64,000 nucleotides of DNA from Candidatus Latescibacterota bacterium (GTDB lineage Bacteria; Krumholzibacteriota; Krumholzibacteriia; WVZY01; JAKEHA01), in assembly GCA_963707635.1 (NCBI GenBank), contig OY970173.1:704001-768000 (forward strand). Reading direction: 5' to 3'. Shown here piece after piece: positions 20,846 to 63,741 of the stretch. The notes under the pieces were generated by a model that saw only the letters and a list, made by a program, of their open reading frames with translations, was not told the DNA's origin and searched no databases. Made by a program: the position numbers and the translations under genes. Numbering within the stretch: the first letter of the stretch is position 1; each line of letters opens with the position of its first letter.

Positions 20846-20963
20846 GGATCACCCGTCGAAGGAGCGGAGAGGGGACGCGACACGCCGGGCGCGCGGGGCC
20901 GGCCCCTTGACTTCCGCGCAAACCAGAGTATAGTCAACGGCTTACTGATCCGAAAGGGTGTTC

Positions 20964-21887
20964 ATGGAGGGTGTCAGAGACATCATCATTCTGGGCTCGG
21001 GGCCGGCTGGATTGACGGCCGCCATCTACGCCGCGCGGGCCGACCTGAAACCGCTCGTCATCGAAGGAACCCAGCCGGGCGGACAGCTCACCATCACTAC
21101 CGACGTCGAGAACTACCCGGGATTCGAGCAACCGGTGATGGGGCCGGAGCTCATGGACATCATGAAACGGCAGGCGGCGCGCTTCGGGACCGAGTTCGAG
21201 TTCGAGTCGATCGATCGCGTCGAGCTGGACGGTCCGGTCAAGACGCTTCACGCCGGCGGGAAGACGTATCGTTGTCGCGCGCTCGTCATTTCGACCGGCG
21301 CGACCGCGCGCTGGCTCGATCTCCCCAGCGAAGAACGGCTCAAGGGTCACGGCGTCTCCGCCTGCGCGACCTGCGATGGATTCTTCTTCAAAGGGCAGGT
21401 GATCGTCGTCGTCGGCGGCGGTGACACCGCGATCGAGGAAGCGACGTACCTCACCAAGTTCGGGTCGAAAGTCTTAGTCGTCCACCGCCGCCACGAGCTG
21501 CGCGCCTCGAAGGCGATGCAGGACCGCGCCCTCAAGAATCCGAAGATCGAGTTCATCTGGAACTCGGTCGTGAGCGAGGTCATCGGGGACGGCAAGGTCG
21601 CCGGCGTGCGGCTCAAAGACGTGACGACGGGCAAGGAGCGCACGCTCGACTGCGGCGGCCTGTTCGTCGCCATCGGCCACACTCCGAATACGTCGCTGTT
21701 CAAGGGCATGGTGAAAATGGACGAGAACGGGTACCTGATCGTCGAGCCCGGAACGAGCCGTACCAACGTCGCCGGCGTCTTCGCGGCCGGCGACGTCGCC
21801 GACCACGTGTACCGGCAGGCGGTCACCGCCGCCGGCATGGGCTGCATGGCGGCGCTCGACGCGGAGCGGTTCCTGGTGGGGCACTAG
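20964..21887 (+). CDS. trxB: Thioredoxin reductase
   Basis: [34 protein letters not shown]. Confidence 0.97.
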
Positions 21888-21926
21888 CCGGAGGGTGCGG
21901 TTGCTCTGGACCGCGGAAAGGACGCC

Positions 21927-22628
21927 ATGCGCAAGTACGGGTTCGCACTGGTCGTGTTCGCGTGTCTGGCCGGGAGTTCCTCGCGCGCCCGCGCGCAGGA
22001 GAGTTTCGGCTGGGATGGCGTCCTCTACGGAGGATGGAGTCATGCCCGGTTGAGCGGGAGCAGCCAGCCGTTCGAAAGCTCGGACGCGCGCGACGCAGGG
22101 ACCGGTGGGGTGGGGTTTGTCCTGCGGGTTGAGGACGAGTTCGGCATCGAATTCGGAATTCGCGCCACGCAGAAAGGCGCCTCGGGGGAAGTCGATCTCA
22201 CCGATTACACCGCGGACGTCAACACGTCGACGCCACGAATCCTCGGCGAAGGCACCACCGCGCTCACCTATCTCGAACTCCCGCTCACCTTCGCCGGCTA
22301 TATGAGCGCCGGTCAGAAGGCGTACCTGCGCGGTTATCTCGGCGTCTCGCCGAATTTCCTCCTGAAGGCGAACTTCACCGGCACTCTCGAAGGCAGCAGC
22401 GCCGACGTGGACATCAAGGACGCGCTCAAGGGGTTCGACTTCGCGTGGGTGATCGGAGCCAGCGCGACGCTCGACAAGACGAGCTACAGCCTGTGGCTGG
22501 ATGGGCGCTACGTGGGTGGGGTGCGCTCGATCGACAATTCCGGATCGGACTACGACGTGAAGACGAACGCGTTCGAAATGGCCCTGGGCGTGGGAATCCC
22601 GCTCGTGCGGGAAGTCGAAGCACAATGA
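21927..22628 (+). CDS. Outer-membrane beta-barrel protein (porin/PorT-like)
   Basis: Signal peptide; QKG...YLELPL...GVSPNFLL pattern; alternating beta strands. Confidence 0.7.
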   Translation: MRKYGFALVVFACLAGSSSRARAQESFGWDGVLYGGWSHARLSGSSQPFESSDARDAGTGGVGFVLRVEDEFGIEFGIRATQKGASGEVDLTDYTADVNTSTPRILGEGTTALTYLELPLTFAGYMSAGQKAYLRGYLGVSPNFLLKANFTGTLEGSSADVDIKDALKGFDFAWVIGASATLDKTSYSLWLDGRYVGGVRSIDNSGSDYDVKTNAFEMALGVGIPLVREVEAQ

Positions 22629-23200
22629 CGACACGCCGAGCGAAACCTCCCCGGGACAAGCTGGTCGAAGCCGCCCGCGGCTTTCTCGCCGCGCTCGAGG
22701 TCGACCCGGCCGGGCTCGAGGCGACGCCCGAGCGCGTCGCCGAGGCGTGGCGCGTGTTCACGCGCGGCTACGCGGGCAGTGCGCGCGACGTGTTCGCGGA
22801 GGGTGTGTTCGAAGAGACGCACGACGGCATGGTGCTGGTGCGGGACATCGACTTTTTCAGTGTGTGCGAGCACCATCTGGTCCCGTTCTACGGCCGTTGC
22901 CACGTGGCGTACCTCCCCGCGGGACGGATCGCGGGCTTGAGCAAGCTCTCGCGTCTGGTCGACCTCCATGCCCGGCGGCTGCAGGTGCAGGAACGAATGA
23001 CGCGCGACATCGCGCGCGACCTCCAGACCCACCTCAAGCCGCGCGGCGTCGCCGTGCAGGTCGAGGGCCGCCACCTGTGCATGGCGATGCGCGGGGTGGA
23101 GCAGCGCAACGCCGACGTGGTGACGACGAGTTTTCTGGGGTCGTTCCGATCCGACCCGGCCATGGCCATGGAGTTCCGGGCGGCGATCGCGCGCCGGTAG
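22625..23200 (+). CDS. folE: GTP cyclohydrolase I
   Basis: [36 protein letters not shown]. Confidence 0.95.
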
Positions 23201-23228
23201 CCACAACCAACGAAACGGAGAAGAGGCA

Positions 23229-23786
23229 ATGTCGATCAAGCCCGACAAGTGGATCGCGCGGATGGTCAAGGAATACCGGATGATCGAGCCGTACGTCGAT
23301 TCGCAGGTGAAGGACAACACGGTCTCCTTCGGGGTGTCGTCCTACGGCTACGACATCCGCATCGCGGACGAGTTCAAGATCTTCACCAACATCAACTCCA
23401 CCGTGGTGGATCCGAAAAACTTCGACCCGAGGTCGTTCTTCGACTTCAAGGGCGACATCTGCATCATTCCGCCCAACTCGTTCGCGCTCGGGCGCAGCGT
23501 CGAGTACTTCCGCATCCCGCGCAACGTGATGACGATCTGCGTGGGCAAGTCCACGTACGCCCGCTGCGGCATCATCACCAACGTGACCCCCTTCGAACCG
23601 GAGTGGGAGGGGTTCGTGACGCTGGAGATCTCGAACACGACGCCGCTGCCGGCGAAGATCTACGCCAATGAGGGCATCGCCCAGGTGCTCTTCTTCCAGA
23701 GCGACGAGGACTGCCTGATCTCGTACGGCGACAAGAAGGGCAAGTACCAGAAGCAGACCGGGATCACGCTGCCCAAGGTGCCGTAG
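23229..23786 (+). CDS. dcd: dCTP deaminase
   Basis: [34 protein letters not shown]. Confidence 0.96.
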
Positions 23787-23857
23787 GCGTGCGGCCCGGG
23801 GCCGGGCCCGGATCGGCCCGGGAAGCCCGACGCCGGGGGTCTCAGGCGATTTTGTGT

Positions 23858-23886
23858 TTGACAGCCCCCCGCCTTCCTGTTAGACC
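23858..23886 (+). promoter_or_regulatory. sigma70-type promoter of the histone-fold gene
   Basis: TTGACA-17 bp-TAGACC with extended TG. Confidence 0.6.
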
Positions 23887-23954
23887 CACACCGTAACGAG
23901 GCTCTCTGGAGCCTCATTCTGGCAAAGGTTCACACTACTGGGAGGAACGTAGAA

Positions 23955-24152
23955 ATGGCAAAAGCTGCGAAGAAGGCTGCCGGTGCCGAGCTGATCATCT
24001 CCAAGTCTCGCACCAAGGCCGCCGCGAAGGGCTACAACGTGTCGGGCGACTTCTACGGCGCGCTCGACAAAGCGGTCCGTATGATCGTCAAGGAAGCGGG
24101 CGAGCGCGCCAAGGCGAACAAGCGCAAGACGCTCAAGCCCAGCGACATTTAG
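23955..24152 (+). CDS. Bacterial histone-fold protein (Bd0055/face-to-face-like, truncated alpha3) with Lys-rich N-terminal tail
   Basis: LIISKSRTK..AK.GYNVSGDFYGALDKAV..IV.EA.ERAKANKRKTLKPSDI; RKT...D histone motif; GGAGG RBS; own terminator. Confidence 0.85.
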   Translation: MAKAAKKAAGAELIISKSRTKAAAKGYNVSGDFYGALDKAVRMIVKEAGERAKANKRKTLKPSDI

Positions 24153-24188
24153 TCGAATTGCCGGGTGACTGTCACCCGCGCGCCAGAG

Positions 24189-24219
24189 GGCCCGGCCTGC
24201 CGGCCGGGCCTTTTGTTTT
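24189..24219 (+). terminator. Intrinsic terminator after the histone gene
   Basis: GGCCCGGCC-TGCC-GGCCGGGCC followed by TTTTGTTTT. Confidence 0.85.
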
Positions 24220-24352
24220 CACACCGAACCGGACGCGGGCGGCGTTGGCGCCGTCCACGGGCCTCGCGGGCGCCCCCCGCGCCGATTACGCGCCTTGCGT
24301 CATCGGGAGCGGCGTGTTACCTTTGCTCAATTAACCCGGAGGATCTCCCGCG

Positions 24353-25816
24353 ATGCCCGATAAGATCATCGGGACAGGAATCACGTTCGACGACGTGCTC
24401 CTCGTGCCCGCCCGCTCCTCATTTCTGCCCGCAGATACCGACGTCTCCACGCGACTGACCAAGAAGATCCGGCTCAACATCCCGATCGTTTCCGCCGCCA
24501 TGGATACGGTGACCGAGGCGGGGTTTGCCATCGCGATGGCGCGCGCGGGCGGCATCGGCTTCGTGCACAAGAACATGACGCCCGAGCGCCAGGCCGAGCA
24601 CGTGGACATGGTGAAGCGAAGCGAGAGCGGCGTCATCTCCAGCCCGATCACCCTTGGGCCCGGGGCGCTGGTGCGCGACGCGCAGGCGCTCATGAAAAAG
24701 TACGGCGTCTCGGGGGTGCCGATCACCGACAAGAACGGCGTGCTGGTCGGGATTCTCACCGCGCGCGACCTGCGCTTCAACGAAGACGACACGCTTCTCA
24801 TTCGGGAAGTAATGACGTCGAAGGGACTGGTCACCGCACCGGTCGGCATCAAGATGGAAGAGGCCAAGCGGCTGCTGCACGAGCACCGCATCGAGAAGCT
24901 CCCGGTGGTCGATTCGAAGCAGCGCCTTCGCGGCCTGATCACGGTCAAGGACATCCAGAAGAAGCTGGATTTCCCGCTGGCGTGCAAGGACGCGCAGGGG
25001 CGTCTGCGGGTGGGCGCCGCGGTCGGCATCGGCAAGGACGCGCTGCACCGCGTGGATCTGCTGGTGGACGCGGGCGCCGACGTGATCGCCATCGACACGG
25101 CGCACGGGCACACCACCAACGTCATCGATACGCTCGCGCGGGTGAAGAAGCGCCACCGCTCGACTCCGGTGGTGGTGGGCAACGTCGCCACCGCGCAGGC
25201 CACCCGCGACCTGGCGAAGGCTGGCGCCGACGCGATCAAGGTCGGCATGGGTCCGGGCGCGATCTGCACGACACGCGTGGTCGCGGGAGCCGGGGTTCCG
25301 CAGGTCACCGCCATCATGAACTGCGCACCGGTCGCCGCCCAGGCCGGTATCCCGCTGATCGCCGACGGGGGCATCAAGTACAGCGGCGACATCGTCAAGG
25401 CGATCGCTGCCGGCGCCGACGTGGTGATGATCGGGAGCCTTTTCGCCGGCACCGACGAAACCCCAGGGGAAATCGTCCTCTACGAGGGTCGCAGCTTCAA
25501 ATCCTACCGGGGCATGGGGTCGATCGAAGCCATGAAGGAAGGCAGCAAGGACCGCTACGCGCAGGCGGACGTCGAGGAATCGAAACTCGTCGCCGAAGGG
25601 ATCGAAGGACGCGTGCCCTACAAGGGGCGCCTGGCGGATTCGATCTTCCAGCTGGTTGGCGGGCTCCGGTCCGGGCTCGGCTACTGCGGGGCGCGCACAG
25701 TAGGGGAACTCCAGGAACGCGGGCGCTTCATGCTGATTACCGCCGCCGGGTTGCGCGAGAGTCATCCGCACGACGTCATCATCACCAAGGAAGCCCCCAA
25801 CTACCGCTTGAGCTGA
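24353..25816 (+). CDS. guaB: IMP dehydrogenase
   Basis: [19 protein letters not shown] pair, [24 protein letters not shown]. Confidence 0.98.
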
Positions 25817-25818
25817 CG

Positions 25819-26730
25819 ATGCGCGCGAGCAACGAATCCGGCATGACGTGGCACGGTCAGATCAACCGGACCATCTGGGAGATCAACGAGGCGATCAAGA
25901 AGGCGCCCGACAATCCGCGCCTGCGCCGCGAGCTGCTGCGCGCGCAGTTTCTGCAGCACTTCGAGTTCGACAAGGCCTACCACGTTCCCCGGGACGATCG
26001 GACCTTCCTGTTTCTGCACGACGCCGACGCGCCGATCGTGCTGTTGCTGCACGGATCGCAGGGAACGCCGGCCGAGATGCGGGAGCTGGGCAACCATCTC
26101 CACTCCCGGGGGATTTCCGCGTACTGCCCGCGCTTCACGCGCACGAGCGGCAAGGACGAGCCGGTGTCGTGGGAGTCGTGGGTGACGCAGGCGCAGATCG
26201 CGCTGGAGAGCGTATGCACGTGCTCGCCGGCCGCGTTCGTGTGCGGCTTGAGCCTGGGCGGGACGGTCGCGCTGATCCTGGCGGAGCACGCGCCGCTGGC
26301 CGGGATGATACTGCTCGCGCCGGCGCTCTATCCGCGCATGGGTCTGAAGGCCCGTTGCCTGCAGCTGACCCGGGTGGTCACGCCCACCGTCTTCTATCAC
26401 TTCGCGGGCTGGACGGGCGAGGTCCTGAAGGCGATGGACCACGCGCGCAAGCAAACCCGTGAGCTCAAACTGCCCGTGCTGGCGCTGCAGTCGGCGGACG
26501 ACCGGCACCTGTCGCCGCGCGGACTCAAGTTCCTCCGCCGCCGTGGGGGCCACCCGGGCAGCGACTTCCGCCTGCTGGCGGAGGGTTCGCACGCGATCAT
26601 GCGCGGCGCCGCGAAGGCCGAGGTGTTCGAGGCGGTGTCCGGGTTCGTCGAGCGCAACGCGCGCGGGGTCAAGGTGGTGGCGGCGGTCCCCGACGCGCCG
26701 GCCGCGGAGTCTATATCTGATCCATCGTGA
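25819..26730 (+). CDS. Alpha/beta hydrolase (carboxylesterase-like)
   Basis: LLHG..G, GLSLGG nucleophile, ADD Asp, GSH His. Confidence 0.85.
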   Translation: MRASNESGMTWHGQINRTIWEINEAIKKAPDNPRLRRELLRAQFLQHFEFDKAYHVPRDDRTFLFLHDADAPIVLLLHGSQGTPAEMRELGNHLHSRGISAYCPRFTRTSGKDEPVSWESWVTQAQIALESVCTCSPAAFVCGLSLGGTVALILAEHAPLAGMILLAPALYPRMGLKARCLQLTRVVTPTVFYHFAGWTGEVLKAMDHARKQTRELKLPVLALQSADDRHLSPRGLKFLRRRGGHPGSDFRLLAEGSHAIMRGAAKAEVFEAVSGFVERNARGVKVVAAVPDAPAAESISDPS

Positions 26731-27484
26731 AGCGGAACGATTCGTCGAGACGCTGAATCTTCTTCACCAGTTCGCGCAGTTTTTCCCTCAGCTCCGGGTC
26801 TTTCCCCTTCATGTACGACGAATAGAGGTCCAGGAACTCGTCCTGGAGGGCGCGCAGCTCGCGATCGGATTCGATGCGATCGATCGAGCGCTCCAGGTGA
26901 TACACGTCGCCCGACGATAGTCGCTCGAGGATGTTGAAGTACTCCCCGCGCATGTGGCTCAGGATCTGGACGTACTGCTCGAACCCGCGCGAGAGCTTCT
27001 CGAGAACCTCGCTGATGGCGGTCGCCTTGCGGAACATCGCCTGGCTGTACGAGTAGGCGAACTGGTAGTAGGCTTTCGCCCGCCCCACGTAGACCTCTTC
27101 GTTGTCCTTCATGAACGCATCCTTCGACCCCGGCCGCGAGACGTCCGGGTTGCGGAAGATGCCGATTGATATGAGCAGGAAGTCCGCGTTGGTCTTGTAG
27201 ATCGTGTACTTCAGGCGCACGTCCGGCGAATTGCGGATCTTCTCGAAGAGGTCGCTGTCATAGCGCGACAGGAACTTGCGGGTGCGCTCGTGGTAGTCCG
27301 GATTCATGAAGGACGTGAGCAGATTGGCGAGGTAGACGTTCACGTCCTCGTCGTAGTAGGTCTGGTTCGAGGGGTTTCCGGACTCGAGCCGGCTGTAGAG
27401 CAGACAGTTCATCATGAAGAAGAACGTCGGCTCGAGGTCGCGACCGCCGCCCGGCCCGATGGTGATATGGGTTCCGCCGTCCAT
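26711..27484 (-). CDS. Hypothetical protein (all-helical, DEDVNVYLANLL motif)
   Basis: Protein-like composition with GC3-rich codons; preceded by a sigma54-type site. Confidence 0.75.
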   Translation of the reverse strand: MDGGTHITIGPGGGRDLEPTFFFMMNCLLYSRLESGNPSNQTYYDEDVNVYLANLLTSFMNPDYHERTRKFLSRYDSDLFEKIRNSPDVRLKYTIYKTNADFLLISIGIFRNPDVSRPGSKDAFMKDNEEVYVGRAKAYYQFAYSYSQAMFRKATAISEVLEKLSRGFEQYVQILSHMRGEYFNILERLSSGDVYHLERSIDRIESDRELRALQDEFLDLYSSYMKGKDPELREKLRELVKKIQRLDESFRFTMDQI

Positions 27485-27572
27485 CTCGCGTCCGTTTTGT
27501 CTCCGTCGCTGTCGGTGTGCCGCGACCGATGAGTCCCACCGGTCCGCCGCGATTGCCGGCAGGGGCGAAATC

Positions 27573-27588
27573 TGCAAGCCCCATGCCA
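27573..27588 (-). promoter_or_regulatory. sigma54 -24/-12 promoter
   Basis: Minus strand TGGCATG-GGGC-TTGCA, about 90 nt upstream of the start at 27484. Confidence 0.7.
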
Positions 27589-27843
27589 CGGATTTCCGCG
27601 CGAGGGCTCCGGTGGCGCCCGACCGTCGCCAACCGTTGATTCCGCCTCTTGCTACTAAGATACCGGCAGAGATGGCCGGCCGATAGCTGCCGCGCCGCCG
27701 GAGCGGCTCCCCGGGGTGCAACATATTGTCAAATTGATGATTATGTCAGGCGGCCGGCTCCCCCGACTCGTGCCGCCGATTCCGTTTCGAAAATGCGGGT
27801 GAGTTGGGGTATAATGGCTCCGGCGACGGCATCGATTTCATTG

Positions 27844-63657: not shown

Positions 63658-63741
63658 ATGGCAGCTAAGAGGAAGGCGAAAGCCAAAGGCAAGGCCAAGG
63701 GCAAAGCCAAGCGCAAAGCCAAGCGCAAAGCCAAGAAGTAA
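63658..63741 (+). CDS. 27-aa Lys-rich basic peptide MAAKRKAKAKGKAKGKAKRKAKRKAKK (histone H1/protamine-like)
   Basis: AAGGAAGG RBS, clean ATG..TAA frame, downstream terminator; below the ORF-track size cutoff. Confidence 0.75.
   Translation: MAAKRKAKAKGKAKGKAKRKAKRKAKK

Follow-up and report, generated by a model that had tools for sequence, protein, structure and literature searches.

The gene for a small histone in this Candidatus Latescibacterota genome is preceded by a set of phased A/T runs that ends against its own -35 hexamer, and the same pattern stands at the promoters of related histone genes in Krumholzibacteriota, Myxococcota, Planctomycetota and Eisenbacteria. As a sequence pattern, this cross-phylum element is real, and at bacterial histone promoters it appears to be undescribed. 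The protein, 65 amino acids long, is almost certainly an alpha3-truncated bacterial histone belonging to the face-to-face (FtF) subfamily. The best explanation overall, to which we give an even chance, is that the FtF tetramer has a preferred wrapping site here and thereby damps transcription of its own gene. In what follows, "the window" is the whole 64,000-nucleotide stretch of DNA that was analysed, and coordinates refer to it unless a genome is named.

The histone fold and its subfamily

The histone gene (23955-24152, + strand) encodes the protein of 65 residues with a KPSDI end that a first, sequence-only reading had given; its net charge is +10. That reading also proposed an alpha3-truncated histone fold, and both a structure model and a fold search bear this out. 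The model (pLDDT 85) places alpha1 at residues 17-23, alpha2 at 33-54 and a single turn of alpha3 at 62-64, and the top eight Foldseek rows were all HLp, HTkC or HBb chains. Fold comparison returned Z scores of 7.2 for HLp, 7.0 for HTkC and 6.7 for HBb (rmsd 1.1-1.4), values so nearly equal that fold alone cannot separate the three; sequence does. A sequence search of the PDB matched HLp with an E value of 2.5e-5, HTkC with 7e-4 and Bd0055/HBb with 0.07, and a 63-sequence profile matched HTkC at 6e-9, HLp at 3e-6 and Bd0055 at 0.1. Pfam gives the protein no name (PF00808 at 17.6 bits, below the cut-off of 21.4). The alpha3 histones are defined by an alpha3 of three to four residues and a shortened alpha2 (PMC11390915, partial text); the fold, the short alpha3 and the shorter alpha2 are all found here.

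The FtF histones of Schwab et al. are marked by R41, N45, R47, T49 and D54, together with the carboxyl that closes the chain at residue 55, and the bacterial dimer histones are without the FtF Arg and Asn (PMC11390915, partial text). Our protein carries the corresponding R51-N55-R57-T59-D64 signature and a terminal I65 (24105..24149, +), which would supply the tetramer contacts and the RD clamp. These signature residues are present in 120 of 120 homologues (among the 120 listed of 913 matches), and the whole signature, with the RxTxxxxD motif (R57-T59-D64) in it, is invariant in the 63-sequence alignment, as is K21 of alpha1. The kinship with Bd0055 that had been drawn by eye therefore points to the wrong subfamily, since R51 and N55, which Bd0055-type dimers lack, are present and dimer-dimer contacts are predicted.

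Among known proteins, HLp of Leptospira perolatii (PDB 9QT0-9QT2) resembles ours in length, in fold (rmsd 1.1 A over 54 residues), in the tetramer residues R49/N53/R55, in the RD clamp and in a short disordered N-terminus, and its DNA-contact positions S14, K15, K17 (Arg here), G29, K54, T57 and R59 (Lys here) are kept (PMC12701072, partial text). The two differ in that identity is about 33%, HLp K21 aligns to Ala, HU/IHF is also present in the host studied here, and the available text of PMC12701072 describes no promoter element for hlp. HTkC of Thermococcus kodakarensis (PDB 9F2C), the best profile match, has in R45 an equivalent of R51; unlike our protein it is archaeal and tailless, with the clamp Asp replaced by His. 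HBb/Bd0055 (PDB 8CMP, 8FVX) shares the alpha3-truncated fold, the RKT loop and the terminal Asp, but it lacks the FtF Arg and Asn, functions as a dimer and matches with E values of just 0.07-0.1.

Predicted as four copies, the protein scored 0.88 against 0.01 for the best control (pLDDT 86), with at least 92% contact agreement between runs and with dimer-dimer contacts at residues 50-51, 54-55 and 61-64. In a calibration on two copies only, 20 of 30 solved pairs came up to the mark for this score, as did 1 of 23 single chains; given the resemblance to FtF complexes already solved, the four-copy score may reflect that likeness and does not show binding. The predicted form is a ring-shaped (toroidal) homotetramer, which by analogy with HLp and HTkC likely wraps about 60 bp of DNA through minor-groove contacts. 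For HLp, about 60 bp are wrapped and 35-72 bp are protected (PMC12701072, partial text). In HTkC, R45 is required for the tetramer, and the minor groove is engaged and narrowed at the contacts (bioRxiv 10.64898/2025.12.06.692711, partial text).

The N-terminal tail

Residues 1-11 (23955..23987, +) form a basic tail with three lysines that is predicted to be disordered (block pLDDT 51), is about as long as the HLp N-terminus and likely adds non-specific affinity for DNA. The Lys-rich tail of the sequence-only reading is thus present, but the eukaryote- or Asgard-like distinction that had been attached to it was rated too high, such a tail being ordinary for bacterial FtF histones, among which positively charged tails are common (PMC11390915, partial text). 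In the 120 homologues listed of 913 matches, tails measure 5-56 residues with a median of 11, the longest probably including mis-called starts, and 118 of the 120 contain at least three K/R. Tailless close homologues are found within the class as well, in its families f3 and f7.

We regard it as very improbable that the protein is instead a Bd0055-like dimeric histone with a modifiable, eukaryote-like regulatory tail. Such a histone would fit the HBb/Bd0055 fold match, which almost equals that of HLp, the MAKxAKK start kept across the genus, and the one HDAC-family and one sirtuin gene in the genome. The FtF residues R51 and N55 speak against it, however, as do tails that are free in length and sequence and missing in f3 and f7. 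HDAC-family and sirtuin genes are moreover widespread among prokaryotes (9 and 10 of 14 controls), and no SET domain was found in the host genome (3.2 Mb in one contig, 96% complete).

Gene neighbourhood and distribution

The histone gene lies between dcd (dCTP deaminase; 23229..23786, +) and guaB (IMP dehydrogenase; 24353..25816, +). Across 30 relative loci, dcd is found 5' of the histone in 29 and guaB no more than 1.5 kb downstream in 19. All three belong to a housekeeping run at 20958-25816 that comprises a thioredoxin-reductase-like gene, an outer-membrane beta-barrel, folE (GTP cyclohydrolase I), dcd, the histone and guaB, and the nucleotide-metabolism neighbours are kept across the order. 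At four loci (L004, L005, L006 and L008), about 1 kb of extra DNA separates dcd from the histone, and the promoter and element are still present. Further along the window, the frame at 26711-27724 (-) has no Pfam family above cut-off, and translation probably begins downstream of the start that is listed. Elsewhere in the host genome, a selenocysteine tRNA was called at G000:C1:1667450-1667544.

Of 181 genomes from the phylum, 124 have a homologue of the histone, as do 106 of 251 Planctomycetota and 42 of 201 genomes of the Myxococcota group. A profile search found no second histone in the host genome, and with this query no relative was found on viral contigs. The host has three HU/IHF genes, so the histone need not be its main chromatin protein; HU/IHF genes were likewise present in all five other histone-bearing genomes checked. 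Tandem FtF copies occur in genome G487 (G487:C50:163422-163793, locus L263), and several f7 genomes hold two FtF paralogues each, one long-tailed and one tailless. The Myxococcota group also has a second histone type of about 70 residues, tailless and with a full-length alpha3 (loci L375-L404). PF00808 is above cut-off for this type in 37 of 301 genomes, often with an FtF gene co-resident, and nucleosomal-type histones have been described as archaea-only (PMC11390915, partial text).

Promoter and transcript

The -35 hexamer, TTGACA (23858-23863, +), is perfect and is kept in 30 of 30 relative loci. An extended -10 TG and a non-consensus -10, TAGACC, follow at 23878..23886 (+); TAGACC stands 17 bp from the -35, matches the consensus at three of six positions and has no T at -7. 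The near-consensus promoter proposed earlier is therefore right for the -35 and wrong for the -10, and a consensus promoter scanner found no promoter at the histone gene. None of the 28 scored dcd-linked loci has T at -7 (one more is unscored), and the sole locus not linked to dcd does; across the host genome, 83 of 104 TTGACA-N17/18-TA sites have it. The loss is lineage-specific, many Myxococcota histone promoters retaining the T. CarD was considered as an activator of the T(-7)-less promoter and rejected, the only PF02559 match being an Mfd-like frame of 1200 aa.

The predicted start lies near 23893. A 7-bp leader hairpin (23898..23915, +) has similar sequence within the genus only; we rejected it as a structured RNA, given that it is no more stable than chance (z = -0.79) and that none was found outside the genus. 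The Shine-Dalgarno GGAGG that had been read from the sequence is there (23941-23945, +; 9 nt 5' of the ATG), and the strong intrinsic terminator said to follow the gene, a G/C stem and T-run at 24189..24219 (+), gave z = -5.2 with none of 200 shuffles as stable. That the gene is monocistronic, as first supposed, is plausible; against it stand the lack of a good terminator in the dcd-histone gap of the window (z = +0.65) and an RNA-library contig, a single one, from a 95%-identical relative that spans both genes. Near-identical RNA contigs (one to four differences, four studies) begin at 23906-23912, just past the predicted start; two contigs depart from this, one starting at 23847 and one reaching across from dcd. 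The eight RNA runs consist of contigs only, which cannot rank genes or show starts, and the contig starts near the predicted start are only a weak hint.

A phased A/T element upstream of the -35

The sequence-only reading correctly gave the gene its own promoter but missed what lies 5' of the -35. There, at 23806..23855, are five A/T runs with G/C blocks between them, a candidate histone-wrapping site. In 61 non-redundant promoters the runs, measured from the first T of TTGACA, are centred at -46.9, -36.8, -26.7, -16.9 and -6.3, with a period of 10.05 bp (bootstrap 10.0-10.15). The A+T fraction is 0.58-0.82 at the peaks and 0.17-0.30 in the troughs, and there are exactly five peaks, with none at -57 or -67. 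Counted from the predicted start, the runs fall at about -42, -52, -62, -72 and -82. A pseudo-dyad lies near -27, upstream runs being A-rich and downstream runs T-rich; the dyad score is best at -27 (0.365), and -31.5 and -21.5 reach 0.34. Base identity between lineages is about 0.37, so it is the rhythm that is conserved and not the sequence.

The element is strong in many relatives. The window copy is weak: its A/T runs are 1-5 bp long, and its AA/TT power of 2.3 is below 3.7, the 95th percentile of promoters in its genome. It nevertheless shows, weakly, the pattern of a histone positioning sequence, namely an A/T repeat of 10 bp that is out of step with G/C and extends over 50-60 bp. A genome-wide 10-bp periodicity in the host was sought and rejected, there being no consistent signal: the best periods were 14.2, 10.3, 10.1 and 10.6 by dinucleotide set, at just 3-4 times the mean power.

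The pattern was scored across lineages in both directions. A matrix was made from 21 loci outside the Krumholzibacterial order, hand-picked from 80; 28 loci without a TTGAC[AT]-type anchor, the Krumholzibacterial loci and two anchored Acidobacteriota-titled loci lacking the pattern were left out. With this matrix, the window promoter ranked 1 among the 354 TTGACA sites of its genome (5 of 354 minus the nearest T-run), and A/T-only models ranked it 3 or 19 of 354. All 30 relatives exceeded the 95th percentile with the matrix, and 26-30 of 30 did so across models. In the reverse direction, an A/T-only model from 18 non-redundant Krumholzibacterial loci, with the window left out, gave anchored scores above 0 in 13 of 18 Myxococcota promoters (20 of 30 anchored), in 5 of 9 from Planctomycetota and in 4 of 7 from f4/f7, with phase coherences of 0.86, 0.77 and 0.91, respectively. 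Four control promoter sets scored above 0 in 1/30, 0/30, 0/29 and 5/215 cases, and phase coherence was 0.77-0.92 at clade histone promoters versus 0.06-0.24 in these controls. When no anchor was imposed, scores above 8 were reached by 19 of 29 Myxococcota promoters and, among Planctomycetota histones, by 5 of 9 close ones and 14 of 21 distant ones, and by 0/30, 0/30, 3/29 and 14/215 in the control sets. The Planctomycetota control promoters are mostly chance matches (a backward control was equally frequent) and hence a weak control. At distant FtF genes, TTGAC anchoring failed (7 of 21 anchored, coherence 0.16). Because the genomes are related, these counts are not independent, and we give no p-values.

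Other promoters mostly lack the element. Scores above 8 were found at none of 13 HU genes, none of 14 Methylomirabilota-type loci and 3 of 16 distant paralogues of the histone's own class; the element was in register at none of 15 loci of the tailless family f3 and present at neither of two Acidobacteriota-titled loci. The second, full-alpha3 histone of the Myxococcota group, from genomes of the same sample, scored above 0 in 0 of 23 anchored cases, and anchor-free scoring gave 0 of 30; it is a weaker control in that many of its promoters abut coding DNA. When rRNA promoters from the class were scored (25 of 30 loci, each by its best candidate), the median was -2.9 with nine above 0, a number that dropped to 3 of 25 without the nearest run; that run is common to rRNA promoters (phase coherence 0.68). 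In the A/T-only model, the rRNA promoter of the host scored 10.2 against 9.5 for the window histone promoter, and about 194 unanchored sites in the host genome scored at least 9.5. A link between tail and element was considered and found not to be strict: tailless f7 homologues have the element, and tailless f3 homologues are mostly without it.

Several further promoters came to light during these searches. At locus L120, a promoter-like site with a high phasing score lies about 740 bp 5' of the histone promoter (G020:C1:251169) and is probably that of dcd. The f3 loci (L224-L238) have a different, highly conserved promoter with an A-run, TTGAC and, at the place of the -10, a recurring TGTCGAG-CGATTGTGTC-like motif, which is possibly an operator or an alternative promoter type. 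The window also contains, at 63658-63741 (+), a stand-alone gene for a 27-aa Lys/Ala/Arg peptide that resembles a histone tail or H1/protamine and has no fold. A TTGACA promoter (about 63517), an RBS and a terminator belong to this gene alone, and its relatives are ORFs of 23-35 aa in the genus and repeats of about 100-190 aa in related genera. Its promoter ranked second of 3478 sites on a combined histone-promoter matrix, with inconsistent scores in relatives.

Discussion

A bounded element of five runs with two-fold polarity is most simply explained as the preferred site of a wrapping tetramer that is itself two-fold symmetric, an inference from the sequence pattern. DNA wrapped by archaeal histone tetramers, in 60-mers, has 10-bp A/T dinucleotide repeats set 5 bp off from G/C over about 60 bp, much as here; that preference, however, is a genome-wide statistical one of nucleosomal histones and is depleted upstream of genes (PMC3691661, partial text), whereas the window element is one fixed site abutting the -35 of the histone's own gene. 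HLp and HTkC bind DNA with no sequence specificity, and the available text of the two papers (PMC12701072; bioRxiv 10.64898/2025.12.06.692711) holds no positioning preference for either protein.

In the mechanism that we propose, the FtF tetramer would wrap the phased element, its putative preferred site. With a perfect -35 and a poor -10, the promoter would depend on its -35 and on upstream contacts. A wrapped tetramer would then block the contacts of the RNA polymerase alpha-CTD at the two nearest runs, about -42 and -52, and blocking these would give negative feedback. We hold this feedback step tentatively, at slightly less than an even chance, and activation by bending could take the place of repression.

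The main rival, unlikely but well worth weighing, is that the same FtF histone does not read the element at all and that the runs are an extended UP element, or a bendable track, for RNA polymerase. The alpha-CTD would then sit at about -42 and -52, DNA further up would be wrapped round the polymerase, and the result would be a strong, possibly supercoiling-sensitive promoter that offsets the weak -10. The two nearest runs lie at the positions of UP elements, the A/T runs keep a fixed register with the -35, and both the high score of the host rRNA promoter and the sharing of the nearest run with rRNA promoters fit such a role. Phased A-boxes far upstream of Helicobacter promoters work through the alpha-CTD (PMC4081817, partial text), and promoters that lack T at -7 do not fire unaided (PMC7703639, partial text). 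Yet the full pattern is missing from 22 of the 25 class rRNA promoters, from HU genes and from other consensus promoters, and neither the sharp stop at five runs nor the A-to-T dyad polarity is obviously needed by a polymerase track. UP and UP-like elements and phased A-tracts likewise have runs at about -42 and -52 with further phased boxes upstream (PMC4081817, partial text), but this element has five short runs, kept apart by G/C and polar about a dyad, and it goes with a single gene family. An UP role and a histone-wrapping role could also share the same DNA.

Two other accounts of the element are improbable. One makes it a terminator for the upstream gene that is coupled to the promoter, its G/C hairpin and U-run doubling as promoter sequence. 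Strong hairpins ending in T-runs do occur at 11 of 30 relative loci (z < -2), and promoter-terminator coupling is reported to be widespread (bioRxiv 10.64898/2026.08.19.745784, partial text); however, just 1 of 21 other-lineage loci folds better than shuffles, the window element folds no better than they do (z +0.65 to +0.8), and a hairpin does not predict a 10-bp period. Termination may at most be a second function of the element in some genera. The other, which we rate marginally lower still, has a different DNA-bending protein (HU/IHF, gyrase or an unknown regulator) bind the element and control the histone gene. Candidates are at hand in the HU/IHF genes of the host and of the five other histone-bearing genomes, and with the distal portion of the matrix one host HU/IHF promoter has the top score. 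Against such a binder, there are no conserved bases beyond the A/T-G/C rhythm, HU genes are without the element, and the 10.05-bp period is shorter than the approximately 11 bp typical of bacterial genomes (PMC4132750, partial text).

We found no description of a promoter element or of autoregulation for bacterial histones, nor of a natural preferred site or regulatory role for any of them, in the literature searched, which was largely without subscription papers and supplements. Nor was a promoter element or autoregulation found in the available text of PMC12701072, PMC10627809 and bioRxiv 10.64898/2025.12.06.692711; material on tails and gene context in the supplements to PMC11390915 and PMC12701072 may be relevant here.

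Returning to the wrapping tetramer, we suggest, again with a little less than even confidence, that FtF histone genes of several phyla carry a natural positioning sequence, one wrap-ready turn set against their own -35. By wrapping it, the tetramer would both gauge and adjust its own level, acting as a one-particle "nucleosome switch" at a bacterial sigma-70 promoter. A reporter and the 7-kDa protein in purified form would be enough to test this feedback idea. Taken by itself, the protein adds a further member to a tailed histone subfamily that is already in print, and the element matters more. If the tetramer prefers the 50-bp element, the element would be a natural positioning substrate for fully wrapped structures, and with it a role of bacterial histones in regulating transcription could be tested directly. 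Such a preference would also speak, from uncultured phyla, for DNA wrapping by these histones in vivo.
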